From: Laetmonice hystrix
Lineage: Eukaryota
DNA length: 64,000 nucleotides
Reading direction: 5' to 3'
NCBI GenBank assembly: GCA_965235115.1
Contig: OZ249436.1
Location: forward strand, 31,622,001 to 31,686,000
Shown one piece after another: positions 14,259-64,000 of this stretch; the stretch's first letter is position 1, and every line of letters starts with the position of its first letter. Both the position numbers and the translations under genes were made by a program. The notes under the pieces are model-generated. The model worked only from the letters and a program-made list of their open reading frames with translations. It ran no database searches and was not told the origin of the DNA.

Positions 14259-14842
14259 CCGCCCATACAATAAATTGTGTACAGTCTATGTCTAGGTTTC
14301 TTCATCCTTGTACAAACAAACGCTTGAGCTCCGCCCATACAATAAATTGTATACACTCTATGTCTAGGTTTGGTCATCCTCGTAAAAACACACGCTTGAG
14401 CTCCGCCCATACAATAAATTGTATACACTCTATGTCTAGGTTTCTTCCTCCTCGTACAAACAAACGCTTGAGCTCCGCCCATACAATAAATTGTATACCC
14501 TCTATGTCTAGGTTTCTTCCTCCTCGTACAAACAAACGCTTGAGCTCCGCCCATACAATAAATTGTATACACTCTATGTCTAGGTTTCTTCCTCCTCGTA
14601 CAAACAAACGCTTGAGCTCCGCCCATACAATAAATTGTATACCCTCTATGTCTAGGTTTCTTCATCTTCGTACAAACAAACGCTTGAGCTCCGCCCATAC
14701 AATAAATTGTATACCCTCTATGTCTAGGTTTCTTCATCCTCGTACAAACAAACGCTTGAGCTCCGCCCATACAATAAATTGTGTACAGTCTATGTCTAGG
14801 TTTCGTCATCCTCGTACAAACAAACGCCCGAGCTCCGCCCAT
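14259..14842. repeat. 72-bp minisatellite, about 8 copies
   Basis: gcccatacaataaattgtatacactctatgtctaggtttcttc...cgcttgagctcc recurring every 72 nt. Confidence 0.95.
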
Positions 14843-17800
14843 GCAGGTGTATACAGCCTAGTTCTAACTCTTCACGTTGCGTTGATTTGCTCGGCCATTG
14901 GTCCGGCGACACGGACAACATCCGTTGTCGGCTGAACACGGGACGCCCACTCAACTAGAGGGTTCACTAAAGAGTTCACTAATATCTTAGTGCCAGGTGG
15001 GTCCACTATAGGCAGTCTTTAATCATAACGCTAACAGGAGACACTTAAGATTATCTCGTTACCATGGTCACGCGGGAAGATTAATAAAATAATTCGGCTG
15101 AAGGGGTTGCACACCACCTAGTGTACACAGGCGTGTAGTCTGATGTCAAGTGAAGCATGCGCAGTAAATAGGAAGCGCTTGATGTCGAGGGGGAGGCTTC
15201 TAGCTCGTCATGCGATGGCATATCACAGAACATTTCGGCATTTGTTGCATTAACCTTCAGAGACCTTCTTATCGACTAATCGACTGACCTTCGCTTGTTA
15301 TCAGCACAAACTATCTAAAGCCGCTCCAACTTAGTAAACATAGGAGGGGTTGTCAAAATGCCCGCGCACTGTAACTCCTTTTACGTCCCAAATGTCCTTT
15401 ATTTGACCGCTCGTCAAGTCGCGTTTAGGACGAACTTCCTGGAATCCCTGGAAGCCAATATCATGGAGTGACGTTTTTAGACAACATACAATGACCATTC
15501 CGAGAATGCTATCTCTGTCAGCGCTCGCCCAGTTAACTCTGCAGTTAAAATCCATTTGGTGCGCGAGATTATGAAATACTTATAGTTCTGGTTATCAAGT
15601 ATGAGTCTGACTTACGCACTGTGGTTAGAATGGCACGGTCATTCAGTACAATTGCAAACCAAAGTGATTCTGTTCAAGGGACCCTTGCGCCAACATTGCC
15701 AGTTTCCGACGCCTCGTGAGGTCCCGCATGGCGCGCGCGTGGGCGATTTTCTGTATCGCGTATGGCAGTGGCTTCCCTATGGGGACACCAAATCAGCAAC
15801 AGCTACTTGTCATAAGCCATCAGCGCACGCCGGAGGACTTGCACGTCCAACCCCCCGACAGGAGTATTAGATTATTGATGATGCCGGCGGTCGCGATCTG
15901 CAGAGGGGGGTATCCCTCGGACAAAGGGGTGCAAGACCACGGCCCGGGCTACAGACCGTGTCTGTGCAGGCGTGAAATTGCTACCAACCCACGTCCATAG
16001 AACATCCGCACACCGAGTCGGCTGGAATAGACAACTGGGACCCGTTTACCCAGAGTTCATCATTTGACCTGCACTACCAGCCCCCCGCCCTGGCCCCTCG
16101 CCATGCAATTGGTAGCTCTGCCGCCCTTTATCACAATAAGTCATTATTGAATTCCTGCTTAAAGTAAACACCAAGGGTGTAACGCTATTACGTTAGATGT
16201 TCAACCTTACCCTATGGGGTTCGCGCGGAATCACTATCAAGAGCAATTGCTTTTAGCACTTCATTAAATGTAATAGATATACGATGACCTTCAAGGGTCA
16301 CGTTGTTATATAAGAGTCACTGGAACATGTTGCGTTTGGTGCTCGGTAGACCTAAGTGGTACGTAAAGCGAGTTGCAGACATCTGACAGCATTCACTGGC
16401 TGTTGTCTGATAAGACTTTCTCATTACAAGCGGCCCGAACTTCTGAAGTTCCTCGTCGCCGTCGTATTCCCTGCGGTGACGTTTGAGCCAGAGTAACTCG
16501 CTCTTTGGAAGGAAACTTTGTTGTATCTACTGGTCTTTTAACAATCACTGGAACATGGTATTGAGGGCGAAGAGAAACGGATGACCTCAAAAATCATCTT
16601 GCCTCGCCGACCAGAGATCAGCCCAAAAGAGTGCGACAATTCACTAAAAAGGTCTTTACCTTGTATTGAGACGAGATCAACGCTGCGTGTTTATTTATAC
16701 GCTCTCAACGCCTACCTGCTCATCGTGATCTTTAAAGTAATCTGTTGGGGTTGACAGGGTATTTTGAAGAATCCAACGATGACCGATCGTCTGCCGAACA
16801 AACCCGTAGCGGAAAGCGCGCGAACTGCTTGCCTGATGGTTTGGATGTGGCATGCTCGTTTAACGCAAACGCTGCAATCCGTCAGCTCGGTAAACCTTTA
16901 TTCTATCAAATGTCACGCGTCAAGGCTCATTCTATAATGGACAAATATCCCCCTCTCAGAATACGTGGGTGCATTTGCGCCAGTTCCCAGGAAATTGGAG
17001 AACGAAGTCCGGTTTAGATTACGGCCGCCCGGCCACTGATGTGAGCGCTTTGGTGGGCGACACGCATTGTTTGCGTGAAGAGAATTATAGAAGCAGAGTG
17101 GCCCGCCCTGCCAGTCACTGTAGATGGACGTTAAGATTGGCCCCTTGCTGTCTTAAACGTGCTGGAATAAGGACCCAATACGTAACGGGAACGGTTTCGG
17201 GAAAACGTTCCACGTCACAATGTGATGGAGACCACAAGGTCCCTCACAAGTATTTGACACTATAGCTTTACCACAATCCACCCCGTCTCGCTCAGCACAG
17301 GAAGTAAGGCGTTCCTCTCAATAAAGATCTAAATAAATACCGCTGCTTGAGCCGTAATATTGACACGTAATGAAAAGTGATGAAAGCCGGCAACTCTAGC
17401 TAAATCGGCCTTAATTTGGCATTTCTGCCGAGATGACTAGAAGGGCATAGAAAGGGCACGCACAGGAGGGGGTAAGTCAGCAGGCCACAGTGGGCGAGGC
17501 AATCAGTTCCCAATACGACTCTCATTATACGGCATGGAGTGTGCGACGCCATCACGCCTTACCCCAAATACTCCCCATGATAACAGGAATATAAATGACC
17601 AAATTGACGGTAGCGCGGGGCCCAACACCAAGATCTGTATGGTGCTGGAGGGAAACCTAAGGCCAAACCAGTTTTATTTGTTCTAGATAAACATGTTTGC
17701 CGATTTATGACGAGGTCGTGGGCCTTAACAGAAGGCCGCCGATATTAGCCGCTCAGAGATGATGGCCCATGAAGCAGACTATGACAAACGCCGGCCATCT

Positions 17801-21306: not shown

Positions 21307-22877
21307 TGAGAACAAACACACCCCAATTTAATCATTACATATGGAAAATGATGTCATTCTGAAACATCTTCTGTAAGAAACTATGAGCAGACCTAGGGGA
21401 TCGGCTCTTGTGTACATACATTGATAGGAGTGCACGTAAAGCCGCAAGGACCGTGGTCGTAAACGTGCAATGTTAACATGTCTGTATGAGGCCTGAGGCA
21501 GAAAGACGCCACATTTGGACATCAAAGAGAGAAAAGAAATTATTACACGGCGAGTGTACATCTATACCGTTCAAAACGGATATAGAAACGCTTTGTATAC
21601 TGATATGAAAACGAAAAGAGCTGCTTCGAAAGTGTCTATTTATTTTGGACAAACACCAATAATCAGTTCGTTGAGCCCCAAGTGCAATGAACCCGTCAAC
21701 CCACGGCATCTATTCAGTGGGAAGTTGGAGTTTTGATCGCCGCCGCTCAAGGACGTCACCACAACGAAGCCCGCCTCGTATACCCGCCGGCGATCTATAG
21801 CACTGCTCTGAGAAACGAGAGTCACTTCGCAGCCATGAGGAACCGAACGAAAATGGCGGCGCAACTTGGCTGCGTGGTAGAAACCTGCCGCGGGCTGGCA
21901 AGTTGGCAACTCTTTGTGGCCGACACTTCTCTACTATTGTTGACGGATACCGTATGGGAAAGTTTGTGCGCGATCCGCCACTACAAGGACAAAGACAAAG
22001 TCTTTGAGTTTTGCTACAGGCTGCTGCTGCAGCTTTCAGAGTCACGTTCTCTAGAAATGCACCGGCTGTGGATACGTGAATGTATCGACTGCGCCTGTAG
22101 ACCAGTCCTGTTGACGAGAACCAGCAGTCATACCACAGCCAAGAGTGACGGCTCAAGCAGCGCCATGCTGTTTGCGTCGGCCCTTCCACTTTAATTTCAA
22201 TTATTGGCCGCACAGCGCGCTGCCTCAATCTTCCCGCATTCAATACATTGACGATTACCCGATTTCTTATTGAATCGGCGCGCCAATATCAGTTGGTCTG
22301 TTGCACAAGGGATATGGACTTGATGACATTTGCAGACCCCCCCCCATCCCCATCTACACACGGCTGACTTCGTCACATAAAATTATGTCGCTCAGAGTAA
22401 ATGGTACATTAATTAACGCTGTTTTCTTGTCAGTAGATGAAGGAATTGCGAAAAAGTTTCCTCAAGTGGGACGTTCAGTGTTGGCTGACGTCTGTTCATA
22501 CTCTCCCATGTTTACTAACTCGTTACTAATCTCATGATGTCCATGGCTAATGGCTTCGCTTGCTGAAACGTTAAAGATTGATAACCAAAAGTTTTAGGTC
22601 AATAAACCCGTCTGTCAGTCTCTGCTTGAATCAAAATAGACTTCGGGGTTAGACATAGCCGGGCCTTTCAAGTTGGTGTTGGGGGAAGTGCACTATCCCC
22701 ATTTACATCATTACTTTTAACCGCCCGTTGTAACTTATTAGGCATTCTGTTGTAACGGGTAGGCTCGAGTTTCTGACGGCATGGACGTGTGTGGTATGTG
22801 TGGGCGCGCGCCAAGTTCAGTCCGTCAGGGTGCACGTGGTCTGATGTGAGTGAAACATTCGCCCACGCATCTACTCT

Positions 22878-25260
22878 ACAGGTTCGGACTATACCCGCCT
22901 CCACATTCCATCTACACTATAGGCTCGGACTTCCCGCCTCCACATTCCATCTACACTATAGGCTCGGACTTCCCGCCTCCACATTCCATCTACACTATAG
23001 GCTCGGACTCCCCGCCTCCACATTCCATCTACTCTATAGGCTCGGACTTCCCGCCTCCACATTACATCTACTCTATAGGCTCGGACTCCCCGCCTCCACA
23101 TTCCATCTACACTATAGGCTCGGACTTCCCGCCTCCACATTCCATCTACACTATAGGCTCGGACTCCCCGCCTCCACATTACATCTATACACTATAGGCT
23201 CGGACTTCCCGCCTCCACATTACATCTATACACTATAGGCTCGGACTTCCCGCCTCCACATTCCATCTACACTATAGGCTCGGACTTCCCGCCTCCACAT
23301 TACATCTACTCTATAAGCTCGGACTTCCCGCCTCCACATTCCATCTACACTATAGGCTCGGACTTCCCGCCTCCACATTCCATCTACACTATAGGCTCGG
23401 ACTCCCCGCCTCCACATTACATCTATACACTATAGGCTCGGACTTCCCGCCTCCACATTACATCTATACACTATAGGCTCGGACTTCCCGCCTCCACATT
23501 CCATCTACACTATAGGCTCGGACTTCCCGCCTCCACATTACATCTACACTATAGGCTCGGACTTCCCGCCTCCACATTACATCTACACTATAGGCTCGGA
23601 CTTCCTGCCTCCACATTACATCTATACACTATAGGCTCGGACTTCCCGCCTCCAAATTACATCTACACTATAGGCTCGGACTTCCCGCCTCCACATTCCA
23701 TCTACACTATAGGCTTGGACTTCCCGCCTCCACATTCCATCTACTCTATAGGCTCGGACTCCCCGCCTTCACTTTACATCTACACTATAGGCTCGGACTT
23801 CCCGCCTCCACATTACATCTACACTATAGGCTCGGACTTCCCGCCTCCACATTACATCTACACTATAGGCTCGGACTTCCCGCCTCCACATTCCATCTAC
23901 ACTATAGGCTCGGACTTCCCGCCTCCACATTCCATCTACACTATAGGCTCGGACTCCCCGCCTCCACATTCCATCTACACTATAGGCTCGGACTTCCCGC
24001 CTCCACATTCCATCTACACTATAGGCTCGGACTCCCCGCCTCCACATTCCATCTACTCTAGAGGCTCGGACTTCCCGCCTCCACATTACATCTACACTAT
24101 AGGCTTGGACTTCCCGCCTCCACATTCCATCTACTCTATAGGCTCGAACTTCCTGCCTCTACATTACGTCTACACTATAGGCTCGGACTTCCCGCCTCCA
24201 CATTCCATCTACACTACAGGCTCGGACTTCCCGCCTCCACATTCCATCTACACTATAGGCTCGGACTTCCCGCCTCCACATTACATCTACACTATAGGCT
24301 TGGACTTCCCGCCTCCACATTCCATCTACTCTATAGGCTCGAACTTCCTGCCTCTACATTACGTCTACACTATAGGCTCGGACTTCCCGCCTCCACATGA
24401 CATCTACACTATAGGCTCGGACTTCCCGCCTCCACATTCCGTCTACACTATAGGCTCGGACTTCCCGCCTCCACTTTACATCTACACTATAGGCTGGGAC
24501 TTCCCGCCTCCACATTACATCTACACTATAGGCTCGGACTTCCCGCCTCCACATTCCATCTACTCTATAGGCTCGGACTTCCCGCCTCCACATTACGTCT
24601 ACACTATAGGCTCGGACTCCCCGCCTCCACATTCCATCTACACTATAGGCTCGGACTTCCCGCCTCCACATCCCAGCTACTCTATAGGCTCGGACTTCCC
24701 TCCTCCACATTCCATCTACTCTATAGGCTCGGACTTCCCTCCTCCACATCCCATCTACTCTATAGGCTCGGACTTCCCGCCTTCAAATTACATCTACACT
24801 ATAGGCTCGGACTCCCCGCCTCCACATTCCATCTACTCTATAGGCTCGGACTTCCCTCCTCCACATCCCAGCTACTCTATAGGCTCGGACTTCCCGCCTC
24901 CACATTACGTCTACTCTATAGGCTCGGACTTCCCGCCTCCACATTACATCTACTCTATAAGCTCGGACTTCCCGCCTCCACATTCCATCTACACTATAGG
25001 CTCGGACTTCCCGCCTCCACATTACATCTACTCTATAGGCTCGGACTTCCCGCCTCCACATTACATCTACTCTATAGGCTCGGACTTCCTGCCTCTACAT
25101 TACATCTACTCTATAGGCTCGGACTTCCCGCCTCCACATTACATCTACACTATAGGCTCGGACTTCCCGCCTCCACATTCCATCTACTCTATAGGCTCGG
25201 ACTTCCCGCCTCCACATTACATCTACACTATAGGCTCGGACTTCCCGCCTCCACATTATA
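22878..25260. repeat. 39-bp minisatellite, about 60 copies
   Basis: ctataggctcggacttcccgcctccacattccatctaca unit; occasional 41-bp variants. Confidence 0.97.
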
Positions 25261-25928
25261 CATGCTCAATAACATTCGCATTGTTTGCAGAACTCGGCCC
25301 CAGCTTTTATCTTCACTTTGATGGAATCACTAAATAGTAGCCAGCCGCGTCTGTGCATTGCGTCTGAATTATTCAACGATTGCAATTAGGCTACGACTCG
25401 ATCCTTTTAAATCTCAATTCAGTGGGAAAGGTAAAAACTGATTGGCCACATGGTCGGGACGCTATATCTTAATAGTTTAACAGAGGCCGATTGCCGTGAT
25501 ACATTAGCAGAGGCTGATCGCTCGGATACTTTAAACGTTAAAGTGGGATTCTGACCGGAAGTGACGTTACATCAGGCCATCTCGTATGGTAGATTAGTTC
25601 CGGGTTCATATAGCCTACCTTTACGTGTAATTATATAACACATTCATTTACACATAATATCCTCTAGTACCAAAAAAGGTTAGCAATAAGCGACTAGGAA
25701 GACAAATCCGGTAATTGGGGTTTTAGGGAAGTTCATACCTAAATATAACAGAGTTGGAGGTCAATGCGGTCCAGACATTATGAGAGAGAAGGGCAGAGAA
25801 CATGTATCTAGTTCTCTCCTCGCCTTTTTTACCACTATAGAGCTGACCATTTCTGGACAGAAAGTCACTGTGTGTCGGCCTACACATAATTCGTTAAAGT
25901 GTTGTGTCAGTTTACATAATTAGAGCTC

Positions 25929-40882: not shown

Positions 40883-43271
40883 CCCCACCAAAAGCATTAT
40901 ATCTTAAACACCTATATAGGCAGGATGCCTTTGTTATTGGGCCGTCTAACCTTTGCGATATGGATGCATCTCTAAACTTGCTCATTTCTAATGCTGAAAA
41001 ATAGTATGTATAGCATGCATTCATGAATGTAGCATTATTACATGCCCTCTTTAGGTGTGTTAATCTAGGTCGTTATTATATGGAGCTAAGGTCAATCGCA
41101 TATTATATGTGCAGGAGGTGTAATTTTGTGGAGAGCCCCCCCCCCCTCCCCCATATACCGCATCACGCAGTATATTGTGAAGGGTGATCCGAACACGGAT
41201 TGGAATCTTGGTGTCCAAGTCCTAATTGGTGCAGCTTGCCAACCACGCCGCCGGGACACATGCAGGTAGGTGGTCAGTGGGGGGACAATGGGCCCCTACC
41301 CCCGGTCACCCCGGTCTGTTCTCTCGCCACTGCATCATTGGCCGCCGCCCTAATTGTCCCGCCTAATGTCCCTTAATAATATATGAATATTGCAGCATGA
41401 TTCCGGGTAGCATTTGCCATTTGCAACAAGCATGGTGGGACAGCGACGTGAGGCTGCTCCCCAACCAGCCCGAGGTACTGTGGTACGTGTGTGTTTGTAT
41501 ATATATGTACATACAGACTAACACAGCCGGCTGGTGCCAGCGCCACGTGGGTATACCATATACATCGAATGGTGGATATCAGACCCTCCCGTCATGGGAC
41601 TCCCCTACAGATCAGATGTGTCAACTTTAGTTTTACCCTTATACTAACAAGGTTTCCAAAACTATGGTTGAAAATTCTTCTCTTCACGAGTTGAGCAGTG
41701 ATAAATCAAGCACGACATGATGGGCCTGAGTCTATTTAATTGCGTAATACACATCCTGCATGGTACGGTTTTTCTTATTCTCATGAGAATCTCACAGCCA
41801 GAGAACCGCCTCGGGGCCGCACGCCAAAAAGGTGCGTATGGAAGGGGGAAGGCCCGGATTGAGGGTGCTTTCTTGACCATTCATATTTCCATTTGGGTTC
41901 AAACCCGGATTGTGGGCCGGGTTTTCGCGGAAAGTTAACACTTGGCTTATCAGCAAATACATGTATAACACTTAAAAGGCGTTCCGGTATAGTCCTCCCT
42001 GCAAGGGGGTTTGTCGCACCCCTATCGAGACAGGAGCGACGGGAGGGACACCGCTGTGCATTTCTAGTTGTTCCGCAATTTGTGTTAACGTCCTGGAGAA
42101 ACAGGGAAAAATCGCGTGTCCTAGTAACCCAGCCCTATGGAACGGTACCACTTGGCGCCACCCCAATTCATTAAAAAGATGCGCACGATATAGACATATT
42201 CATTTCACATTATTAGTCTGCAGTACATCTTCTTTTTTCGTCTTCCTAATTAAATATACGTAACATGGCGCATAGGCTCTACGCAGTGGGCTGCAGGCCC
42301 GTTCCCTATAGGCCACTAAAAAGTAGGCAATAAAACAAATAGGCCAAAAATGACGGTATCCCCTTAACACGTTCCCAAAGCTTCGTACCACTTGTGTACC
42401 CCTATACTATAATGATTTACAACACCTCTAAATAGTGTTAACATGAAATGGACTCTTTAAATGATGTTGCTTTGTCTATGTTGTCATTCCATATCACATT
42501 TTTAGTCACAAGACAAGTTTCCCCCCGCCATTATTTTCTTGTCCTTTCTGTAATGTCTAACCCTTTACAAAGTCCACGGAATGAGTGTAGGCGAGATTAC
42601 ATTAACCAAAGGGTATGCTCTGGTGAATAAACCGAAACATCAGAGGTAGTTTCTCAACCCTATAAGGCGGATCCACACTGAGGGATCAATAGTTAACGTG
42701 TATTACCACTACACTGTAGTAAACGATGGACACTTTGTCCCATTTCTTGTACCTGCAGATCATGAAAACGGTTGCCGCTTGAGAAAGTGAATATTACAAA
42801 GATATCAAGATTAAGAAGACCAAAATGAACGGCCAACCTTTACGTCAGTCCCGATCATGTCTCACAACATAGGACCCTCACTCAAGCACAGAAACTTTGC
42901 CGTCGGCTTTCATGGCCTTTTTTTATACGATATAATGTGATTGCTATGTAGTAGGGGTAGCTTACGTGTTAAACCCTATTGGCAATTCTAAAGATCGTCT
43001 TCTAGGCTTCCAATAATATTACAATTTCTAACATTGAGACAGAGATAGACCTACGAAATCCTTGAGAGGATCTATTCTATACCCGGGGGCTGACTGGGAA
43101 ACTGCATTTGGGAGTTCCAGATTCATGACAAAGAGTCTCATGGAAAATCTTTGGTAGCTAATTCACAGTTTACCTTTACCGGAGCCTTGCGGACGGTTCC
43201 ACCATCAATTGGTTTATTCTATTAATTTCAATAAATGGGACTTGAGAGGGAAACAAACAAAAAACACGTAC

Positions 43272-43463
43272 CTGGCCGCGGTATTCGTAGCCCAGGTCGG
43301 ACGCGACCTCACGGGCTATCTGCTCCCCGCCCGGGATGTGAACGGCCCATTCATTGGTGAAGTGTCCCTGAGAGCGGGCGTGTACGGCAGTCGTGCCCGC
43401 ATCATCCAGCAAACAAGCGCATACCACCAGCAGCAGCAACCACAACCCCTGGGTGCCAACCAT
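43272..43463 (-). CDS. PCSK1: Prohormone convertase 1/3-like, coding exon 1 (signal peptide + start of prodomain)
   Basis: ATG at 43463; MVGTQGLWLLLLVVCAC hydrophobic signal; HFTNEWAVHIPGG..A..VA..LGY S8 prodomain motif; ends RGQ|GTACGT donor, phase 0, 192 nt. Confidence 0.9.
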
Positions 43464-50690: not shown

Positions 50691-53325
50691 TATGTTATAC
50701 AAATTAGGGGTATATGTTTAAGCATGCGTTTGTGTAGTATCTCCAGTAAGATTTATTTAAGAATTAAAGAAAAGGGGACGCTCTCTCGAAAAGAGAAGGC
50801 ACCGCAAAATCCCGGACATTTTAGATGTTGAAAAAAAAATCTGTTACTCACGCAGAGTTAATAGAACCAAAAGGGGAGACAGGTCCGGGAAGATGCGGAC
50901 GTATAAGATACCAATGGGTAGGTTGGCACATGCGGACGTAATTAAGATACCAATGGGTAGGTTGGCACATGCGGACGCTGGTTGACTTTAAGTGGTTCAG
51001 GGATCAACAATCAATCATTAATGCCGTATCGATCTCGACAAGGATATCCTGTGAACCAGAGTCCCGTCGGGTATCCGGGACGAGCGGCGGGTACCACCCC
51101 CCCCCCCCTCCCACCGGAGCCCAAGCCGGGTTGAAATGGGCACTGGTTGTGGTCAGACGACCTGTAAATGTCCGTCGCCATCTCCGTACGGGTTGAGACC
51201 AGTGGTACCATTTGACAGTAATGCCTGACGTCCTGGTATGGATCCCGGACTTCAGTTATGCCGTTAATAGCCGAGCATGTCCTTTGTTGTGGACGCCAAG
51301 GTTGGTCGGTGTTATCAGTTCATGTTATGTGGAGGCCGGTTGATATACGACAGGCTGGACGTCAATATAACCCAATAGAGAGAGAGAATGGTACCTGGCA
51401 ACACTCCACATACCGCACATGGATTAGTTACCCTTTTTGTGAATATTAGGTTTTGTGATTAAAGCCGTTATTCTAGTGTCCGCCACATTTTCAATGCATG
51501 TCAGGAAAGTTATCAGTCATTTAGCATTATTATTCAAACAAAATTATGAAGTCCATTATAGAAAATGTTCGGTGTTTCACCATCAGTTGTTACAGCATGC
51601 GTTCTGTAGCATTCTAACCCGCTGTCCAATTAGGGACTCAATTAGTAGAACTTAATTCATAAACTGCTGGACAGCTATAGGTTGAACAAAGCGATTGATA
51701 AAACGTTCTCTTGTATTTTGGCAATTGTTGACAGTGACACCCCATGCATAATCCTGTATGACACATCTATATAGTTGTAATAAAGATGCCCTTTAAAATG
51801 TGTAAATATATTTTATATTTATTCCGTCACAAGGATAATTGTATTGTGTTACATTCACCTAATATAGGAATGAGCTACCTACCACTTGTAAAATAAAACT
51901 TAACTATGACAACAGATAATAAATATAAATATAAAGCGGAATGGCATTTTCGTTTGTTCTTCATAACATGTCGCAGTCCCTTCTTGCTATCACTTTTGGT
52001 CATACACAATAAAGCGCGCGTGTACTGAGATTTTCATACTTGAAACCATCGGCACTTATATTCAGTTCTCAGTTTTTCTCTGATAACAAACCACATAAAC
52101 TGATTACATAGAAACCAGCCCTTGCATAGCAATTCTCTTCTCAGAATATCGCATATAATTGACTTTTGTTTGCGTTGGTTGAAAGGAAGTGATCGGATCC
52201 GGGGCTTCTCGGTCTGTTATTGTGTTGAGGTTTCACTAATAATATTTCAACTACCGGTCCTAAGGTATCTCTTCAACTATAAGTAATTCTTACCATATCA
52301 CATTTCAGTGCGTCGTCGTCGGTCAGAATTAGAAATAGACCATACCATATATATTATATAATATAGTGTACGTAATTAGGTAGTTGACATGTATTTCGTG
52401 TATATGCATTAAAGCTTACTAGCTACACAAACACCGCCCGATATAACAAAACATTGTTTATGCATACGTCATTTGTCAACGTGTAAAACGTCTAGAAAAA
52501 TTGGTTCATGAGATACTTGACAGAACATGACGACACAAGGCAATACATCTTTTAGGTCAACGCTGCTGGAAAACCTTCTGTGATTAAAAAAAGGTGAAAT
52601 AAGACCGACAAAATACTCGGTCAGTCTCGGTTACTGACAGCATTGACAATGACCAATCATAGTCACGACAATTTTGTTCACATGCTTGTAAGATATCTCA
52701 TTAAACGGCAAACCCCGACTGACTTTGCCAAGTATTATTAGCATGGCGTGCTGGACTATAACTGGCATAATAAGGTTTGTCAGATTGCTATTCTCTTCAA
52801 AGGAAAACACCGTCCATGCCTACTGACCAATAATTAATATGCGGGCTTAAAAGTAACGATTCGAGACGAAAACGCCTCATCAACGGGACAAGGAGAATAC
52901 TTATCATTTCTCGAACCTGACTTTGACGTTCGAAAAACAGTTTCGTTTAGAAAAAAAACCCACCTCCTTAGTAATACACAGGGCAGTAAAGGTAAGATGG
53001 AATGTTCCTATTAGGTCTCTTTTCAACTCACACATACACACTAAGTCACACATACCAACCATTTCAGGAGCATCGTACACGGTTAGTTCTTAAAGTAAAT
53101 TAATTGTAATAACATAGTTCAGATCATTATGCCTACAGATTAAACCTATAACGTCGTTAACTACTTGTAAATCGGTGTTCTTTGCTTTGGTACCTTGGTA
53201 TATGTAGAAATATCCTAACAGTTCCGTCTGCAAGCCGGCTTTACCGTACCAAATCACTGACATTCAAGAAATGACTAGCTCTGATTGTATAACATCTGGT
53301 GGCCTTCTACAGAAGCGAGCAGCCA

Positions 53326-53862
53326 CTAAGTATTGGGCGATACGGGATTTGGTCTTGCAGCGGTCGGCCCACTTCGGTGCTCTTTGTCCAGATGCTCCTT
53401 CAGATATTGACTGTAGCGGAATCCCTCTCCACATATCGAACACAAGAAGCTGTTGATCTTGGTATGTACCGTAATGTGTGCCTTGAGATTATTGCTAGCC
53501 GTGAATCCCTTCCCGCAGTACTGACACTTGTACGGGTAGATTCCCTTGTGGGTGTTCATGTGCAGTTTGTGGCCTGACGCCGACGAGAACGTTTTGCCGC
53601 AGGTCGTACATGAGTAGGGCCTGGCCGGGCGGTCGCTCTGAAGGAACACCCGGCTCCGCTGCAGCGTGGCCGGCCAGACGTGGGGCGACATGTCGAAGGG
53701 GATGTATCGGTTGGTCGATTCGCCCTTCAGGACGAGCGCCGTCTGTTGCATCATGTGGGAAGCGAGAAGCTGAGCCATGTTCTCGTCACGGCCGCTAGAT
53801 GTCGCGTCGGATCGCTTGATGGTGTCGGCGTCGCGTGGAGTCGCAGCATGGAATGTTTCGTT
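53326..53862 (-). CDS. Alternative terminal exon D: three C2H2 zinc fingers
   Basis: ttcgactttgcatatttccag|AAC phase-0 acceptor; CTTC..HMNTH, CQYC..HITVH, CSIC..HLDKEH; own stop. Confidence 0.87.
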   Translation of the reverse strand, partial: NETFHAATPRDADTIKRSDATSSGRDENMAQLLASHMMQQTALVLKGESTNRYIPFDMSPHVWPATLQRSRVFLQSDRPARPYSCTTCGKTFSSASGHKLHMNTHKGIYPYKCQYCGKGFTASNNLKAHITVHTKINSFLCSICGEGFRYSQYLKEHLDKEHRSGPTAARPNPVSPNT

Positions 53863-55596
53863 CTGGAAATATGCAAAGTCGAAGTGGACATGAATCAACG
53901 CGGGTTTAGAATAACCTTAAAACGTTAACATTTTCAGTTGTCAGAAACCGATAGGGTGGCTGGGCCGTTTTGTACTCACTCTCAAAATAGTTGCATTAAT
54001 GCCCGCTATGCCTCCTCTCATAGCCCCTTTCCCCTCCCCTCGACTTCCTATTAATTTTATTGGATTCCTCTTGCCGCCGATAGCTACACCCCTATATAAA
54101 CACAAGGGAAGGTGTAGACGTTAATTTAATAACCTGAGTAAAATTCTACTTTTCTTCTACTACTTACATGGAAATTGCCTGCTTCAATTTAACTTTTCCA
54201 TATACTACTTAAAAAGACAGGCCTCCAAGTGGGCAGAGAAAAAAAGTTTTTTTTAAAGGTTCTCATTTCCAAAATATACAGCGTTTATACCGTCTACTAC
54301 ATTTCTCTTATACATGTACTTACATACTGTTCAAATTCTCTCCATAATATACACCCATCATGCATCGTGCCGCCCACCAGACCATATAATTCACGGCTTA
54401 TAGTAAATGCTTCATGGTATTGGTAGGGTATGTTTTGAGGGCAACCATTCCGATTCTTATGCCGCTGCCTTCACTAAATATGCCCCCAAAAACGTGCCAG
54501 GTAAACCGTTAAGCAGCACGAATCATCCCCTGAATTGCCGAAAGTCTCAAAAACAAATATTTTCGCGACAATTTGCGAAGGAAAATAAAGGTCCCAGACC
54601 GGAAATATAGGTTTTAACGGTGCTTTGAACCAAATAAAGGAAATATAATGCCATAAAAATAAAGGTTTAAAAAGGTTTTACTTGGAAGGCTGCAAAATAA
54701 GTTTCATGAACTTATATAAGAAGATGGCTAATGTACAAAATAACACAAAACACGAATGAGGAGAGGTCATTCAATAGTTGCCAAAAATATAACAAAAAGA
54801 CCGACCGTTTTGCATACATTTACATGTACATGTACTGAAATGGTCACTTTATTATAAGTTCACGCAAAATCAAAGTCGACCATCCTTGACAAAGCATATT
54901 CCTTTTCGCTGGAATATGCTTTGTATATGTATTTGTTGAACGGGGTTTTCCAATGAGGTCCTTGGCAAAGACCTGTTGCAGTGAGTGATTTAACAAAATG
55001 AGGGTTCTGGCTTCTAAGACAGAAAGAAAAGAAAACTATTAAATGCCCATATTTATTTGGTAAAGCAAACGGAAATATCGTAGAACATGACTAGCCAGCG
55101 TATTCATTGAAAAGGTCTGGGCAATACATAATCACTCCATATTAATTGCCCAAAAGACTATGATTAAGGTGCTTCTAGCGACATATCAAACAACAGCTGA
55201 CCATTAGCCGATGAAGTTATTGAAGTAAGCCTATTGATAAGGTTGATTAAAGTTCGCTCTAACAACTGCACATCTTCTTTTGTATTGGGTAAACTATGAC
55301 TTGATCCATACGAATGATGCTATCTCAGCGAGAATGACACGGTGTACACTGCCATAAAGCTATAACCATGAACGGATATACACAGTTGATAAAGTGAGTT
55401 GTCTATAAAAAGAGTTGCCGCCAAAGAGCGGAGAGGCTCTATCTATTTTGTACGTCAATGTCCACCCGACAGTTTATTATCCCTACTATTCTGTCCCTTT
55501 CAATTTTTTTCTGTCATCAATGCATGTAATGATATATATTGTGGTTGAATGTTGACATCAGCTCTGATGCTCATTGAGTCCTTGCCCGGTTGTGTA

Positions 55597-56295
55597 TTAT
55601 TGTCTGGGTCCCTGGCGATCAGTGGCGCTGCACCTTGTTTCATCACTGTCGGCCGGGACACCTCGATCTGACTCAATTCTGGCCACTGACGTTTCTATAG
55701 AGATCACCTCGGTGGCTGACCGCGGATGTAATTCGAGACCTGTGGGGGCGCCACTGCACGGTTGTTGACACGATAACATGGCTAACGTGTCAATAAACGT
55801 GGCTTCGTCCGAGTGGCTCCTGTGTATGTGGGCCATCAGGTCCTTCTTGTACCTGAACTCCTTTTGACAGAAGCCACACTTGAATTCAAAAACATTCATA
55901 TGAGATGTGAGGTGACCGCGCAGATTCGACTTGCACGTGAAACCCTTTCCACAGAATTGACATTTCAGAGGATACACGCCCTTGTGGCGGTCAACGTGCA
56001 GCTTGTGTCCAACCACGGACGAAAACCGCTTGTCGCAAATACTGCAAACAAACGGTCGTACTTTGGAACCGTGCGAGTCCCAACCCTTGGACATAACGTT
56101 TTGCCACGGAGTCTGCCGCACGCACGCACTATGCGGGCTTCTCGGAGATTGCGTTTGATCATCTGTTTCACTTTTCCGACTCGTTCTGGACCGGTGGTCC
56201 CGAATCCGTTCCACTTGACCGGCCAGGGTCTGAGCGTGGACATGAGCATCGTTTAGAAATGGCGATGTGTGGAGCCTGGGTTTGGTGTCCACCAT
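55597..56295 (-). CDS. Alternative terminal exon C: three C2H2 zinc fingers
   Basis: ctctgttccattggttgcag|ATG phase-0 acceptor; CSIC..HVDRH, CQFC..HLTSH, CGFC..HIHRSH; stop, then AATAAA (minus) at 55473-55478. Confidence 0.85.
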   Translation of the reverse strand: MVDTKPRLHTSPFLNDAHVHAQTLAGQVERIRDHRSRTSRKSETDDQTQSPRSPHSACVRQTPWQNVMSKGWDSHGSKVRPFVCSICDKRFSSVVGHKLHVDRHKGVYPLKCQFCGKGFTCKSNLRGHLTSHMNVFEFKCGFCQKEFRYKKDLMAHIHRSHSDEATFIDTLAMLSCQQPCSGAPTGLELHPRSATEVISIETSVARIESDRGVPADSDETRCSATDRQGPRQ

Positions 56296-56685
56296 CTGCA
56301 ACCAATGGAACAGAGGTTTGAGCTGCGTTCTCCCAGTTTGGGCGGAGTCTCCGTGCTGGCCACTCCATGGGATCCCACCTACATATCCCCACCCTCCCCT
56401 CACTGTGTGCTTCGCCTTTACAAGCTCTTTCATTTCACCACTCACGACATGAACATTCATGGTCAATTACAACTACAAAAGTCCCCTACCATAAAAGGCA
56501 AGGATAATTCGTTGGCGAAACTGGATTAAATAAATAATTCAAATAATTCAAACTGTATTACAGTACTGTAGAGATGCCCTTAAATTTAATCTCTCGGTTG
56601 AAATTTGGTAGGGAACATGAATTTGACCATAGGCATTTATTTGAGTCAAATTATGTCCCTAAAACCTGTCCACAACAAGCAAACT

Positions 56686-56844
56686 CAGGGGCGGATCGGG
56701 GGGGGGGGCATGATAGGGCCATTAGGGGCCATGCCCCCCTAAAAATAACGAGTGCAGTTCTTAGCCGAGGCCTAGATCTATACGCCCGTTGTAGGGTCAT
56801 TGCCCCCCCCCCCCCCTCCAACTGAAATTTCTGGATCAGCCCTG
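56686..56844. mobile_element. CAGGG-terminal MITE with perfect 5-bp TSD
   Basis: AAACT|caggggcggatc...gatcagccctg|AAACT. Confidence 0.75.
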
Positions 56845-57814
56845 AAACTTGCTTGGGCGTAATGACGAGTATATGAGTTGAGCACGGAGCTGTCACACAA
56901 ACGGAGTGATGGGTAACCCTCATTGACGGTTCTGACTTGAACCATCCGTCTCTCTTCTTGTCACAGAGTCCCTACAAATCTACCAGTACCTGATTCATTC
57001 ATCCACAAGGCCTATGTAGAGTCATGATGACTTGCCTCTAACTTATCACTATGAGGTTCTCTTATATCTTCTTCTCACCAAAATAACATGACAACATAAC
57101 CGAGAATGAGAAAGGTTTATCTCAAAGTCAACCAATACTAATTATTGTCATTTTCGCACAATCACAAATCGAGACATTGGCACCAGATAACAATAATTTC
57201 CTGAAAGTATCTGTACACTTAACTATGACAAAAATAACCATAGAATTACGCTGGAAATGATTCCCATAAAGTCCCGACGTCAAGGTCTGCTGCTTTGTTG
57301 GATAACTTCTCCGTCATATTGACTGTTGTCGCTGTCCAGAATGGGAAGAAAAACTAAATTTTATCCTGTACAAAACATTCCGCAGCACCAGCCACACATT
57401 CCTCCGGGTTACCAATCTGTATTATATCAGTACGGAGGTCAGGTACTTTAAAATAATTTTAAAAATATAATCATATATAAAATAAATAACAAAGGAGCAA
57501 ACCAGGATCATCACTTATGCTGGTATCAAGTCAGACAGCATTATTTAAGCAGTCCTCTTACTTATATTCGCAAGGTCATATTGCAAGAATGGCAACATTG
57601 ATCAAACTGAGGCTGGCTGTCATCTGCAATCGCCCACTGTTCAGATAGATACTGAAGTTTCCGCCTCAAGTCAAAAGTCAAGTCAAAACAAATGAGCACT
57701 ATATGTAAGATCCATCGTTGGGGTTATATATCTGCCTCCATTATTCTCTTGCGCCACCCTCTGACCGACCCTCAGTGGGCCTGTGAATGAACAGTCATTG
57801 ACCTCTGACTGATC

Positions 57815-58240
57815 TCAGACTGACATCTCCCTGATGTCCTCCCCGATGTCCCTACTAAAGGCAGGTGGCGGCAGACCTTGCCTGCGGGAGTTACACTGGG
57901 AGCGTGCTGGCCGGCTGCCGTCGGAACCACTCCAGTGTCGGGTCCAGATCCGCCACACTGTCGTCTTGCCCAGACAGAAGAGGTCAGCCGTCTGGGTGAG
58001 CAGCCCGAATGGAACACTCCCCGACGTCAGGTTGCCTCCATTCTCAACGATATGCGCAACTACAATCCGCCTCTCCTCTTGAGTTGTGGCCTTCACCTCC
58101 CGACCTCTGATATTGATGCGCGGTCCATAGCGAACTCCCACCGCGGCGGTGGCGGCAGACGGCTTGACTGTAAGGTTGGAGGCAGAGCCATAGAACGACA
58201 AAGGAGCAGGTCTCTGTATCCATCCCGCGGTAGACTGAGT
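57815..58240 (-). CDS. Alternative terminal exon B: paired/Tc1-transposase-like HTH
   Basis: ttgtttctggaccttgacag|ACT phase-0 acceptor; TQSTAGW...RINIRGRE...ERRIVVAHIVENGGNLTSGSVPFGLLTQTADLFCLGKTTVWRIW; aligns without gaps to exon A; own stop. Confidence 0.72.
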   Translation of the reverse strand, partial: TQSTAGWIQRPAPLSFYGSASNLTVKPSAATAAVGVRYGPRINIRGREVKATTQEERRIVVAHIVENGGNLTSGSVPFGLLTQTADLFCLGKTTVWRIWTRHWSGSDGSRPARSQCNSRRQGLPPPAFSRDIGEDIREMSV

Positions 58241-58920
58241 CTGTCAAGGTCCAGAAACAACACGGATACAGTATCATGTAGTGTCAGACATCACCTTGGG
58301 TCTAGTCAGATGAATGTGGCACTCGCAGCACTTAGTGACCCGGCATTCTGGTACTACATCAGGGATGGAGTTGGAGTAGAAACTAGTACTTCAACAACTG
58401 TTGGTTCGATTACATGGGGTCAGGCGTTCACATATGGCACAAAGAATGAAGTTCATACTCGACAGGGCTATATATAATTATTATATTCCATCGTAAATTA
58501 TAAGACAACTATAAAAGACTTAAAGAATGTATACGAGACAACTCATAACTCCTATCATACCATTTCTTTTTAAAAGTTACTGCACAAACATCACAGACAC
58601 AGATAATTACATGTACTGGATATCAACAAGACATCTTTACATCTAGAGTAATACGTTTCTCCAATTGATAACAGGATATAAATCTTTCAATGTCTGAGTG
58701 TATAACAGCAAATAGCACTTTCTGAAACTTCTTTCATATTGGCACTTCATTTGTCAACCTTTGCCGCTACTGATCAACTTATAATCTTACAACAATGAAA
58801 AGATAGGATGACATGAACTCATAAAAATCCAGGTTTTGACACCTTATGTTACCGTTCTCTTCCATAACTCTTTATGCTCATAACCAAGTACTCTCATGAC
58901 AGGTAATCTTTTGGCGTTTA

Positions 58921-59195
58921 AAGCCTGCCATACACTATACAATTCCCAGTCGGCAGCAAATCACACGCCCCGGCACACTATACGACTCGAGTCATAAGCC
59001 CCCTCACACTTTGAGTTTGAGATCCGACTGTGGGTGACTGTGATCCGATTCAAAATTCGAATCGACTGTTTGGGGCCTTGCGACCCATTCCGATCGTCGT
59101 AGGCGAGTCGTAGGCGAGTCATAAGCAAGTCATAAGCGGGTCGTAAGCTCCAGAATGCGATCGGATCATAAGAAAATTGTATAGTGTGTGGGGAG
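58921..59195. mobile_element. Harbinger-like MITE remnant
   Basis: ccatacactatacaatt / aattgtatagtgtgtgg inverted pair with internal gagtcgtaggc repeats. Confidence 0.5.
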
Positions 59196-59324
59196 AACGA
59201 CGTTGAAAAAACTCCTCAGAGGACTGCTGTGTTTTATCAGTTAATACTTGATGTCTATCCTGACACCCAGGTTTAGTACCGGGTTAAGTCTTTCTGGTAG
59301 AGCCTTAACACCTTCAGGATTAAT

Positions 59325-59747
59325 TCAGGAATAGTTCCACGGCTTGTCCCTGTTTGTACCTTGTGAGCAGTTCATATTTTCTTGCTCCAACATTGACTCT
59401 TGTGGAGAGCAGTGCTCGTTTGCAGTCCGGCTGCAAGAATGGCTTTCCACTGGGATTCCATGATCCCCGATATTGACCCTACCAAGACCAGAGACACTTC
59501 GGTGTCTCCAGTACGGGGTCCAGATGTTCCAAATGGTTGCCTTGCTGACCCGGTAAATATTGGAGACTTTGGTAAGGGTGCCGTTCGGGGCCTTCCCAGT
59601 CCGTGGGTTTCCCCCCATGTCGATTATTTGCTGAATGATGTTGACGCGCTCCTTGGTGGACACAACCCCGATCCGGCGACCCTTTTGGTTGACTTTGGAT
59701 GTGCCGTCCCCTGTGGCTGGGGGCCACCTGCACTGCCACCCCATGGT
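59325..59747 (-). CDS. Alternative terminal exon A: paired/Tc1-transposase-like HTH
   Basis: ctttttgtcttcccaccag|ACC phase-0 acceptor; TMGWQ...KVNQKGRR...ERVNIIQQIIDMGGNPRTGKAPNGTLTKVSNIYRVSKATIWNIW; own stop codon. Confidence 0.72.
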   Translation of the reverse strand, partial: TMGWQCRWPPATGDGTSKVNQKGRRIGVVSTKERVNIIQQIIDMGGNPRTGKAPNGTLTKVSNIYRVSKATIWNIWTPYWRHRSVSGLGRVNIGDHGIPVESHSCSRTANEHCSPQESMLEQENMNCSQGTNRDKPWNYS

Positions 59748-61249
59748 CTGGTGGGAAGACAAAAAGTTCTCTTTTAGTTTGTGTGCGGTGGGTTCGGTAA
59801 GCAATGGTCGAGGGAAAGATCAGCCTGCTGGCAGCACACATTCCAGATGAACGTCAGCCTTGGCTAGTACTTCGGCCAGTCTCACTTCCTGCAGAAATGC
59901 TGGCTTACTTGGGATTGTTCCAATAAGTTCAGTCTTGGGGAACAAAATACCGGACAAAAAGAAACGGAACAAAAAGAACTAAGTTATCAGTTTTAATTGA
60001 TTGACAGCCCACAGAAAAACTGCTCTTTTTTCAAATGACATTTGGAAAATTATGTTAGTTCTTGTGTCACTTCAAAATTAATATAACACATCTGCTATTT
60101 CACGTCTAAGTATTGTAAAGGTGTTTTTTTAAAAATACAGGTTAACTGATAAACGTAACAGTAAACCTGAAACTCAATTCACCAGATGTGCAGTCATAGG
60201 AACATTACAGCCAGCCACCTTAGAATTAAAAAAAGCCAAACGTGCACGTTGTTTTCATTCCAGTTAATCATAGAAATTTATCTATATTTCTAATGACGGG
60301 CAACTCTCCTTCCTTAATCTCCCTTTTGAAGAATTGTTTGCCCTGTTTTTATATTAACTCTGCATGTAATCTCTCTGCCCTGGCAACATCACTCTATAAA
60401 AACGATGGCTTGGCAAGTTGTTGGATTACCGCTATTCAGTGCAAATTGTGAATATTTCTAGTGAAGCACATTTTTTAACAATTTACTTTGTATGACTCCT
60501 GCCACTAGATGTGACACACATATAATTTATCAAAATAAGTACCTTTGTCAGGTGACTGTGAGAATATAACCCTTCAATGACTGCAACCACTGGTTATAAA
60601 AGAGAGACTTATGGTCTGTGTTACATAAATGACTTCTCCAAAAGACGGAAAAGACAGGCCATAGTCGTTGTTATATAAATGCAACAGCTGCTCCTGGTAG
60701 TGAAGAAAGTGCACCCACTGACCCCTGTTCCTGGCTAAAAAGAAATAAATATCTTTCCCACTGGCCATTTCTGGGAGGGAAACATATACCTACTAGTCCT
60801 TCCTAGATGTTTACCACATGAACCACAAGCTCATTCTTAGTAAACCACCCTTGCCATCACTTACATTCTTACATTTTACACTTAAAACTCAGAAAGTTGG
60901 AGCTGTTTGAAATTATTACCTAGTACAAAATTGGAGCACATACTAAAGCTTCTTAAAATGCAGTCATACCCCAAGTTAGTCAGTCCTGAATAGCCTATGA
61001 TGGTAGGCCTAAACGTCAACACGACGTCACAAACATTACCTAAAAAAACTGTGAAAAAGTATGTACATTCATGAGTATAGACACTGCAGTTCTGGAGATA
61101 GTGTAAAGGGCAGATTTCCTTTTAAGTAGATTATTTATATATTGTGTCACACACACCAAAAGAGAAACCTCCATAGAGCACCAGAAAAAAAAAGGATAAA
61201 AGCATAAAGACACCAAGTACCAAGACGTCAGAAAAGATGGTAATCTCAC

Positions 61250-61900
61250 CTGAGTGTGTCCTCCAGGTAAGGGCGAGGAGGGTATGGAGGAGCCTGGAGA
61301 GAAACTGGAGGTTCCGCTGTGTCCAGGCCAGGACATCTGTCCTAACTTAGACTCGTGTGTATTATGTAGAGTGTCACTGTCATCCACTGAATACATGCCA
61401 CCGTGTGGTGGCTCGGATAATCCAAAAGTTTGTTGTATATATTGATCCTGATCACCAGCATCATCCGAGTCTAGGATCTCTTCCTTTATAACAATAGGGT
61501 CTTCTGTTGTGTTTTGATCATCCCGTAACCCAGCCCGCCTTTTTCCATTGTCAGTCCTGTGAAACTCGCTAGGTTCATGCCAGGATCGCTTGCGGAATGA
61601 CGTTTCATTAGCAATATGATCACTAGTTGGTGTTGATGAAGAAGATGATAGCCTTGCTGGCACGACTTTCTGTTCATTGTCTGCAACAACGGACCTGCAC
61701 ATTGAACTAAGGTCCACCCGGCCTTCCTTACTGATCGTTTCATTGATCTTGACCAGAAAGACATCCTGTTTATCAACAGTTATTCCCAACAAACCGTCAA
61801 TGGTGAATTCTAAGTCATAACCGAGGCCATTTTTACAGAGAACCGTGATGGCCTCGGTCAGTAAGGCTTTGATGCGGTCCTGATCTGTGTTTACTACCAT
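61250..61900 (-). CDS. Common coding exon of a multi-isoform DNA-binding protein gene (unassigned ~55-aa N-terminal domain + low-complexity linker)
   Basis: Acceptor ttttttcag at 61953, ATG 61900, 217 open codons MVVNTDQDRIKALLTEAITVLCKNGL...PGGHTQ, donor CAG|GTGAGA phase 0; IKEE motif at 61478-61489. Confidence 0.85.
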
Positions 61901-64000
61901 CTTCACAACTCGTTGTCTCTCCAATTATACCAATCAATCAACCTCTCATATTCTGAAAAAATAAATACATTAATATTCAGTAAAAGTGCCACTGCAGAGA
62001 TTTTTTTAAAGTAAAAATTTGATCCAAACATCATTAGATTACCCTTAACTCGAGTTTTCTCCCAATTAAAAATCTTAAAATACACAATTTTGCACTTTAT
62101 TTTACTTCCCACAAATTGATTTTGGTGCCTGCCAAAGTTCACAGCTGTACATTGCATCAATCAGACTGTATGTCTAGAGAATGCAATATTTAATTTTCAC
62201 CCGCCCATGTGATGGCTCGGGGGTTATTGAAGTCAAAGTGTCCGTCCCGGAAGTCAATGAGGCTTCCCCCGTCCTCTCCCGCCGTCCTGGCCCAGCCGAG
62301 TGACCGAGAGCGAGCGCTGGCCTGAGCACGATCACACTGATGTCAGTCGAGACTAAGCATGGCTGTAACACAGTGCAGTGCAGGGGGTTTCCACGTATCC
62401 CGGAAACCCTTTCCCCCTTTTGGACAGTTTGGTAAAAAAAAGGGGATGTAAAATCAGGCCTGATTTTAAGATGTGAACGATCGTTTTGTTCGCGTGTCAT
62501 TCACCTAAAATGGAAAGGCCGAGAACGAAAATCCGTTCACCTGCAAATTTTGCAATCCTGAGATTAACAGGTGAACGATCGTTTCGTTTGCCTGTCGTTT
62601 ACCTAAAATAAATAACGGGAATAAAAAATGGGTTACGCAAATTTCCCCTAATTTCAGGCCTGTAAAATGCATTATTTTTTAACCAAAGGAAACTTTCATA
62701 TTTCCAAACAAGATGTCCCGAAATTGCTTTATTTGATGTCTTTCTTTTTAATTTTCCAGAGCATGGCCTAATGGCCATCTCTGGAGTACCGAAACTTTGC
62801 AAACCCCCGTAAAAAATTTCTAGATATGCCAGTGAATTGTTATCAGTTTCAACTGCCTCTGGGGTTTCAGTATTTTCCATCCTCAAAAGACTTGTCATAC
62901 CTTATTTCTGTATAATTTCATAATAAAAGATGTATCTTAAAAGTACTTCTGGAGGATGTGTCCTCGTACAGGATATATATGTGGCATCTGTAAATAGGTG
63001 AGGAATTTTTGGATTCCCCAGGTTGGCAACACTGCTAACGTACTTGAGGTGGAGCTAAATTAGGCCACTTAAAATTAATAAATTGTTTTACATGGCCGGC
63101 CGCCTCAATTTTTTGGCGCCGCCTTGATTTTTTTATATTTTATATTTTTCAAAAAGTCCGTTTTTTTTCATCCCCAAAACCGTTAGAGATCGTCAGTGCA
63201 AGCGCACGCCGCGCACCATCTGTCGGTGGTGCATAAAACGAGTACCCGTGGTCGTTCAGAATATTGAGGACTCTATGTGCATATCTTTTGAAGCTTCAAT
63301 TGTTGGCTTTTTTAATGTTCAGTATTCTAGCTTTAAAATTTCTTGTTAAACCTAGTCTCCCACAGTTCTGTCAGGGTGTTACAGTTAAAGTGACCCTCAA
63401 GGTATAGAATGGTTGTACAAAATGTTGAGATATTGAGAAATTAAAAGTATTTTTCCAGTATTGGTGATCTCTGCTGTCCTTCTTCTTGTCGAGGAAAAAT
63501 ATAAAATATAAAATATAAAATGCCCTACTCACCAACATTTCAGAAGTTGGAGTCATGTAAAACAATTTATTAATTTTAAGTGGCCTTATGATCAATGTTC
63601 AAAAAATGAAGCGGCATATATTCAATTGTAATTGCTGAGGTCACTTCTGACAGGCCAGCCAACTTCCCCAGACACTCTGACCAACCAATGAAAACACTTT
63701 GACCAACCCCACCGGACACTCTGACCAACTGCCGGACACACTGACTTGCCGGATGCTCTGACCATCGGACGCACTGACTAGGATAAATCTGACGGCCCAT
63801 ACCATGGCCATGCCAATAGATGGTAATTTTGTCTTTTTGACATTTTCTATCATTTAGTATTTAGATATCTACACTAAGAAGACAAAGAGGGGCCCTTTGC
63901 ACTTTGTTGATCCCAAACCTAATCTGCTATAATGCTATGACCTATGTGTGAGCCTAGTATAATTAATATTATAGCTTTACCTTACAGTTACAATAATTGT

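Follow-up and report, generated by a model that had tools for sequence, protein, structure and literature searches.

How can one locus supply several DNA-binding proteins with a common N-terminus? The BTB zinc-finger complex loci lola, mod(mdg4), broad and fruitless combine a constant 5' part, which encodes an N-terminal BTB/POZ domain, with an array of in-phase, mutually exclusive 3' exons that have their own stop codons. The layout of a constant part plus variable zinc-finger exons characterises broad, fruitless and tramtrack. In the KRAB-, ZAD- and SCAN-zinc-finger families, a short N-terminal module that is restricted to a lineage occupies one exon and the C2H2 array another; their many paralogues are clustered, and each gene normally carries one finger exon. 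Here we describe a locus of Laetmonice hystrix that resembles the BTB loci in its array of 3' exons but has no BTB domain. It lies on the minus strand of a 64,000-nucleotide stretch (assembly GCA_965235115.1, contig OZ249436.1, positions 31,622,001 to 31,686,000), referred to as the window, whose numbering is used below unless a contig or locus is named.

At lola, constant and variable zinc-finger exons are joined by a mixture of cis and trans splicing, according to the accessible text of PMC13490949. The N-terminal domain at the locus described here is a different one, and the variable exons add helix-turn-helix (HTH)-like domains, DUF3504/QRICH1 and two domains without a Pfam family. In the accessible part of PMC4208683, mod(mdg4) is one locus that is reported from arthropods only. 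It is wholly trans-spliced, with separate promoters and with exons on both strands, whereas here there are about 38 loci with a one-exon constant part, and cis splicing could reach every mapped exon. Compared with the KRAB, ZAD and SCAN families, the genes described here can carry many terminal exons, of unrelated folds. In Lophotrochozoa, transposase DNA-binding domains (CENP-B, HTH and related) have been domesticated in Capitella and in molluscs (PMC10027918); the accessible part of that survey makes no mention of isoforms, alternative exons or the N-terminal domain.

One constant exon and four terminal exons

The constant frame runs without a stop for 651 nucleotides, from an ATG at 61900 to a phase-0 donor at 61250 (CAG/GTGAGA, minus strand). 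Behind it, CAG acceptors at 59747, 58240, 56295 and 53862 open phase-0 frames of 140, 141, 232 and 178 codons on the same strand, which end at their own stops at 59325, 57815, 55597 and 53326; the in-frame joins of the constant exon to these terminal exons are stop-free. An initial annotation of the sequence had postulated just this anatomy, with no DNA-binding domain in the constant exon. Its coordinates were all confirmed, and the constant exon has no Pfam match at E ≤0.1. The features of the locus are as follows.

61250 to 61952, minus strand: constant coding exon; acceptor 61952, ATG 61900, 217 codons, phase-0 GT donor after 61250
61721 to 61900, minus strand: N-terminal domain of about 57 amino acids; helix 4-25, strands 31-42 and 46-57 (predicted), no BTB
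61250 to 61720, minus strand: Ser-rich linker, poorly conserved; basic clusters at amino acids 103 and 120, [IV]KxE motif at amino acid 138
59325 to 59747, minus strand: terminal exon 1; 140 amino acids, probable transposase-type HTH
57815 to 58240, minus strand: terminal exon 2; 141 amino acids, probable transposase-type HTH; AATAAA at 56641
55597 to 56295, minus strand: terminal exon 3; 232 amino acids, three C2H2 fingers; AATAAA at 55478
53326 to 53862, minus strand: terminal exon 4; 178 amino acids, three C2H2 fingers; AATAAA at 51823
62201 to 62330, minus strand: candidate non-coding first exon, GC-rich; donor CGG/GTGAAA at 62200

All AG sites between 61200 and 44000 were filtered for YAG, a pyrimidine content of at least 0.6 and a phase-0 frame of at least 70 amino acids. 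Just six AG sites in these 17 kb pass: the four acceptors named above, a site at 56229 that is nested inside exon 3, and a site at 47707 that opens a frame without a recognisable domain. Three of the four terminal exons lack a strong internal donor; the exception is exon 3, with a single 5/7 site in phase 2. In-frame ATG codons are found at codon 2 of exon 1, codon 1 of exon 3 and codon 29 of exon 4. In exon 2 no Met occurs until residue 139 of 141, and this exon, without a usable start codon of its own, is therefore not translatable alone. Because the constant exon opens with an acceptor (61952), the gene must have one or more non-coding exons further upstream. Inside the constant exon, ahead of the main ATG, there is also an upstream frame of three codons (ATG 61949; 61938 to 61949, minus strand).

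Very probably, alternative choice of the last exon, made in cis and coupled to polyadenylation, yields four proteins here that have a common N-terminal end and different DNA-binding ends. A single gene would combine one constant coding exon with four last exons that exclude one another: splicing would link the phase-0 donor at 61250, most simply in cis, to one of the four phase-0 acceptors, and the choice of terminal exon would be coupled to the choice of the polyadenylation site. The products would be four nuclear proteins of 357, 358, 449 and 395 amino acids with a common helix-hairpin domain and disordered linker; their ends, two HTH-like and two with three C2H2 fingers, would be expected to bind DNA. 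The reading as alternative terminal exons, which was already that of the initial annotation, is supported by the phase statistics and exon positions of a gene family, by an orthologue, and by joined forms among the database proteins of other species. A lola/mod(mdg4)-like design without BTB is real and family-wide; at this locus, junction reads from 61250 to the acceptors would be expected from it.

A family of loci with the same anatomy

Is the locus alone in its genome? Two probes found 38 constant exons, 31 of them on contig C1. Twenty of the 37 other loci were read over 10 kb each and the rest by match position only, so that exon counts are lower bounds. The best donor in the last 150 nucleotides of the constant frame is in phase 0 in all 20 paralogues, compared with 73 of 188 for all GT (p ~6e-9). 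For the best acceptor upstream of the domain, phase 0 was observed in 32 of the 34 frames that could be scored, compared with 99 of 237 for all YAG (p ~1e-10). Two further frames had no candidate acceptor, and a C2H2 regular-expression match at L075:4165-4473, which is likely to be spurious, was kept as a miss.

The position of the exons is equally consistent across the family. Genome-wide searches that were blind to position found 56 copies of one exon domain without a Pfam family (200 amino acids), seven of another (140 amino acids) and three of the HTH. All 66 copies (56/56, 7/7, 3/3) follow a constant exon on the same strand at a distance of at most 55 kb; such zones together make up about 0.17% of the genome. 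At the 20 loci that were read, the clustered C2H2 frames (19/19) and the frames with the 200-residue domain (10/10) all share the strand of the constant exon. Ordinary C2H2 clusters at other places in the genome have no tie to the N-terminal domain family.

By a hand tally, at least 13 of the 38 loci carry more than one candidate exon, and six combine unrelated domains. L078 has seven C2H2 frames and L073 has four, while C2H2 frames occur together with both kinds of domain lacking a Pfam family, or one of them, at L061, and with DUF3504/QRICH1 and such a domain at L074. The scale is larger than that given in the initial annotation, with about 38 loci, some of which have 13 to 20 candidate terminal exons. 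In a family of this kind the fixed phase-0 donor would act as a socket, such that a new isoform would arise from any single-exon domain that lies downstream behind a phase-0 acceptor. The arrays would expand by tandem duplication of exons, of which the pairs 1/2 and 3/4 may be examples, and several of the plugged-in domains would derive from DNA transposons.

The paralogues show some further arrangements. At C1:30416040-30453743, two convergent paralogues have interleaved arrays, with three plus-strand exons about 2.9 kb apart that are antisense behind the minus-strand gene. A paralogue at C1:31691601, 7.7 kb upstream of the constant exon in the window, is head-to-head with the gene, and further head-to-head pairs are found at C1:47052062/47055026 and C1:20789164/20797297.

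Relatives and joined proteins in other species

The same anatomy is found outside L. hystrix. In an orthologue, the constant exon (P0006) shows 69% identity as far as the donor, which is at the same position, and the match to HTH exon 2 (P0246) is 68% identical over 77 amino acids; the ENA contigs that carry these exons are both 573335 long and are most likely the same contig. A search of related sequences for the N-terminal domain followed by exon arrays, which the initial annotation had suggested, found them on metagenome contigs: on L010, from an animal, about seven C2H2 frames follow the constant exon within 10 kb, and L012 and L016 have two or more.

Are the parts joined? The dipeptide QV that results from reading through the donor is found near the frame end in 59 of 109 homologue frames versus 39 of 294 control windows. 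In four Logan protein clusters, joined and read-through forms diverge exactly at the donor residue. In one of them, P0164 and P0256 have 222 of 223 constant residues in common; both part from the read-through form P0255 at one and the same position, after which each continues into a C2H2 tail of its own. In the others (P0213/P0248, P0240/P0252 and P0268/P0214) a joined and a read-through form diverge at the same residue. At the BTB loci, transcripts join the constant part to several different 3' exons. A stricter screen for isoforms found one pair, P0164/P0256, from another species, as the single homologue in which a constant part was observed with two tails. Of the proteins fetched, P0213 and P0268 have the tails that match exons 3 and 4 best. 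The Logan protein P0230 joins the N-terminal domain to the 140-residue domain (probability 96.6), and gene models join it to BEN, to a CENP-B/Tc5 HTH and to zf-Tnp_2, a piggyBac-type zinc finger.

Domains of the terminal exons

The initial annotation had assigned HTH domains to two of the terminal exons and C2H2 arrays to the other two. The C2H2 part stands: exons 3 and 4 encode arrays of three C2H2 fingers over the Pfam cut-off, with 49% identity over the fingers. The HTH part is below cut-offs. Exons 1 and 2, which are 32% identical over the domain, have sub-threshold Pfam matches to DUF7769 (E 0.0018 and 0.023) and HTH_Tnp_ISL3; the top Atlas match for the HTH exon is DUF7769 at 0.89 (mark 0.9), with HTH_SB, HTH_23, HTH_28 and HTH_29 lower, and a sequence search of the PDB gave no match. 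A search of the genome for the DUF7769 family was also blank, but the controls were likewise blank and the result is uninformative.

Did these domains come from transposons? For the HTH of exons 1 and 2 a transposon origin is only a lead. No catalytic transposase part or stop was found in or beside the HTH frames, a search for HTH homologues among longer proteins returned the orthologous exon only and no full transposase, and each of the three HTH copies in the genome is behind a constant exon. By contrast, the transposon origin of the CENP-B/Tc5 and zf-Tnp_2 tails is backed by Pfam. At L074:3043-4221, a 393-codon frame with a phase-0 acceptor in the array of a paralogue matches QRICH1 and DUF3504 over the cut-off; we take DUF3504 to be Crypton-derived, and BEN to be transposon-derived.

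The 200-residue domain has 17 copies at each of two paralogous loci, C1:19918609-19946382 and C1:46591161-46642308. With alignment A2, VIA-align placed it closest to SIRV1 ORF119 (Z 7.1, root-mean-square deviation 3.1, 112 aligned), followed by a Helitron transposase (Z 6.4, root-mean-square deviation 3.5, 127 aligned) and the Vientovirus Rep (Z 5.8), all below 8. The best match in BFVD has E 8.8e-5 and is to an entry without a name. Foldseek found no PDB match at E ≤0.001, and 10 sequences have no conserved counterpart of the His pair that, with a catalytic Tyr, marks HUH/Rep endonucleases. As a lead only, these structural comparisons would fit a Rep/HUH-like domain that is maybe inactive. 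The seven copies of the 140-residue domain include L061:4788-5333, L065:8004-8600 and L068:2873-3451. An Arg/Glu-rich helical exon type, with no Pfam family over the cut-off, is found behind constant exons at L068:7583-8215 and L064:7831-8811.

The N-terminal domain and the linker

The N-terminal domain is retained in 1444 protein clusters at 50% identity, and its named carriers are the annelids Helobdella, Paralvinella and Lamellibrachia. An AlphaFold2 model of its 57 residues consists of one helix and a long beta-hairpin, with a mean predicted local distance difference test score of 87.7. Does it belong to a known family? No Pfam family was over the cut-off in 26 members, and seven of the 26 have weak matches to STN1_2 (best E 0.00093). 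Foldseek gave no match at E ≤0.001, and the best fold match has a Z of 4.1 (hot-dog thioesterases); there is no sequence match in the PDB and no usable match in Atlas. Membership of the BTB family was rejected, as a domain of 57 amino acids with a helix and a hairpin, and no BTB match at E ≤0.1 in the constant exon or the 26 homologues, was found. KRAB, ZAD (zf-AD) and SCAN were rejected as well, on the lack of any such Pfam match. ZAD has four invariant Cys, and the alignment of the N-terminal domain has one.

By analogy, the N-terminal domain may be an oligomerisation or cofactor module in the role of BTB, KRAB or ZAD. A homodimer prediction had a score of 0.02, in a model that did not use the alignment. 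Tandem pairs of the domain occur in some homologues (P0005, P0007-P0011), which would fit a self-pairing domain.

The linker behind the domain diverges fast, but two of its motifs do not. An [IV]KxE motif is kept by 89 of the 109 homologues, against a mean of 7.7 and a maximum of 14 in shuffles, and by 18 of 20 paralogues, and a basic cluster is present in 103 of 109 homologues (shuffles: mean 33). The former is presumably a SUMO site and the latter a nuclear localisation signal.

Contigs from sequencing runs

Contigs of four sequencing runs of the same organism were compared with the locus; none of the runs is on record as RNA. Three of them cover the introns as well as the exons and run collinearly from one exon to its neighbour, which confirms the assembly. 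The fourth, X4, leaves most intron bins without cover; the uncovered parts were not counted as evidence. One X4 contig aligns to 61613 to 61953, and its remaining 77 letters leave the genome exactly at the predicted acceptor of the constant exon, so that it looks like a spliced transcript. The alignment extends into the acceptor AG by a single base, in keeping with an upstream exon whose final G follows a non-A base. Further X4 contigs lie on exon 2 (57826 to 58025), on exon 3 (55858 to 56210 and 55402 to 55679), and from the end of exon 4 onwards (53082 to 53454, 52812 to 53050 and 52438 to 52784). Exon 1 has depth in its bin and no piece among those listed. Among the variants listed inside the terminal exons, six of seven are synonymous.

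Cis splicing, trans splicing or separate genes?

Several observations weigh against alternative last exons at this locus. The joints listed from the runs, which are not on record as RNA, include none from 61250 to any acceptor; the repeats at 58974 to 59188 and 62500 to 63700 dominate the matches, so this missing joint carries no weight. An in-frame ATG opens exons 1 and 3, a canonical polyadenylation hexamer (AATAAA/ATTAAA) is missing between exon 1 and the next acceptor, and the HTH of exons 1 and 2, probably of the transposase type, falls below cut-offs. Three of the 20 paralogues (L067, L072 and L076) have no recognised domain exon within 10 kb. A Pfam domain is found in just four of the 150 best homologues, as expected of single-exon frame calls, although this does not count in favour of the reading. 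The sole case with two tails joins C2H2 tails that are 56% identical, not unrelated folds, on contigs whose library type is not given; the joins to BEN, CENP-B/Tc5 HTH and zf-Tnp_2 are predicted by gene models, not seen in transcripts.

Could the same products arise by partial or whole trans-splicing, with terminal exons transcribed from their own promoters and maybe common to several paralogues? The accessible text of PMC13490949 reports independent promoters and the use of both strands for mod(mdg4), and the paralogues here are clustered, with 31 of 38 on one contig. The plus-strand exons at C1:30440869-30447029 point in the same direction: they are antisense at 7-13 kb from a minus-strand constant exon and are 25-31 kb from the same-strand one. 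However, all four exons of this locus and all 66 mapped exons have a constant exon upstream on the same strand and, therefore, trans-splicing is not required; we regard it as unlikely. It is slightly more doubtful still that only one or two exons are used and that the others are independent small genes, decaying duplicates or transposon remnants. The ATG with which exons 1 and 3 open, the lack of a junction among the joints listed and the resemblance of the HTH exons to transposase N-termini would all fit such frames. Yet exon 2, which has no start codon, is 68% conserved in another species, the HTH has three copies genome-wide, all behind constant exons and without a catalytic transposase part, and the phase bias is unexpected for independent genes. 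One weak donor-like site within exon 3 is all that would favour the chaining of several exons in one mRNA. This idea, together with that of an array produced by misassembly, was rejected as next to impossible: a stop ends each exon, and the contigs of three runs cover the introns and bridge neighbouring exons collinearly. Cis choice of one of four last exons is the reading that we prefer, with joins from 61250 to the acceptors that would be made as in the relatives.

Surroundings of the locus

Downstream, the next gene encodes a subtilisin-type proprotein convertase; its first coding exon, at 43271 to 43450 on the minus strand, carries the Peptidase S8 pro-domain. The repeats at 58974 to 59188 and 62500 to 63700 are high-copy, with a depth in the thousands, and the former is just behind exon 1, the exon that has no canonical polyadenylation signal. 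Minisatellite arrays at 14114 to 14935 and 22777 to 25337 give rise to long repetitive open frames.

Novelty and biological meaning

Has the family been described before? A literature search with varied terms and with the acronym LZF, in whose coverage subscription papers and theses are mostly missing, found no description of the N-terminal domain family. 'Lophotrochozoan zinc finger' genes with a common 5' exon and many zinc-finger exons are said to exist at thesis level; they were searched for and not confirmed. The basic zinc-finger version could well have been described somewhere already, although we lean towards the view that it has not. A prior description is less likely for the mix of unrelated folds and for the two domains without a Pfam family.

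The evidence is evenly poised for a broader proposal: that this is an undescribed family of annelids, and probably of wider lophotrochozoans, in which an N-terminal module with a phase-0 donor serves as a socket for the capture of DNA-binding exons, and at whose individual loci splicing selects among unrelated folds. It would comprise about 38 loci and at least 90 candidate exons of five or more unrelated kinds, several of them from mobile elements. The kinds counted are C2H2, HTH-like, the Crypton-derived DUF3504, the possibly inactive Rep/HUH-like domain with its 56 copies, and the 140-residue domain.

If this is true, the strategy of lola and mod(mdg4) arose independently at the scale of a family, which would be a candidate counterpart of the KRAB-zinc-finger systems, and gene annotation misses most of its isoforms. 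Gene models keep one tail per locus, so that transcription-factor counts in such genomes would be underestimated. The constant-plus-variable-exon design that is documented in insect BTB genes recurs here on an unrelated domain, in another group of animals and throughout a whole family of genes, with unrelated folds mixed within single loci (six by tally). The N-terminal domain and the two exon domains, all without a Pfam family, are clear targets for structural and binding assays. The design may offer a direct route by which a transposon DNA-binding domain becomes part of a host factor, without a new promoter or effector domain.

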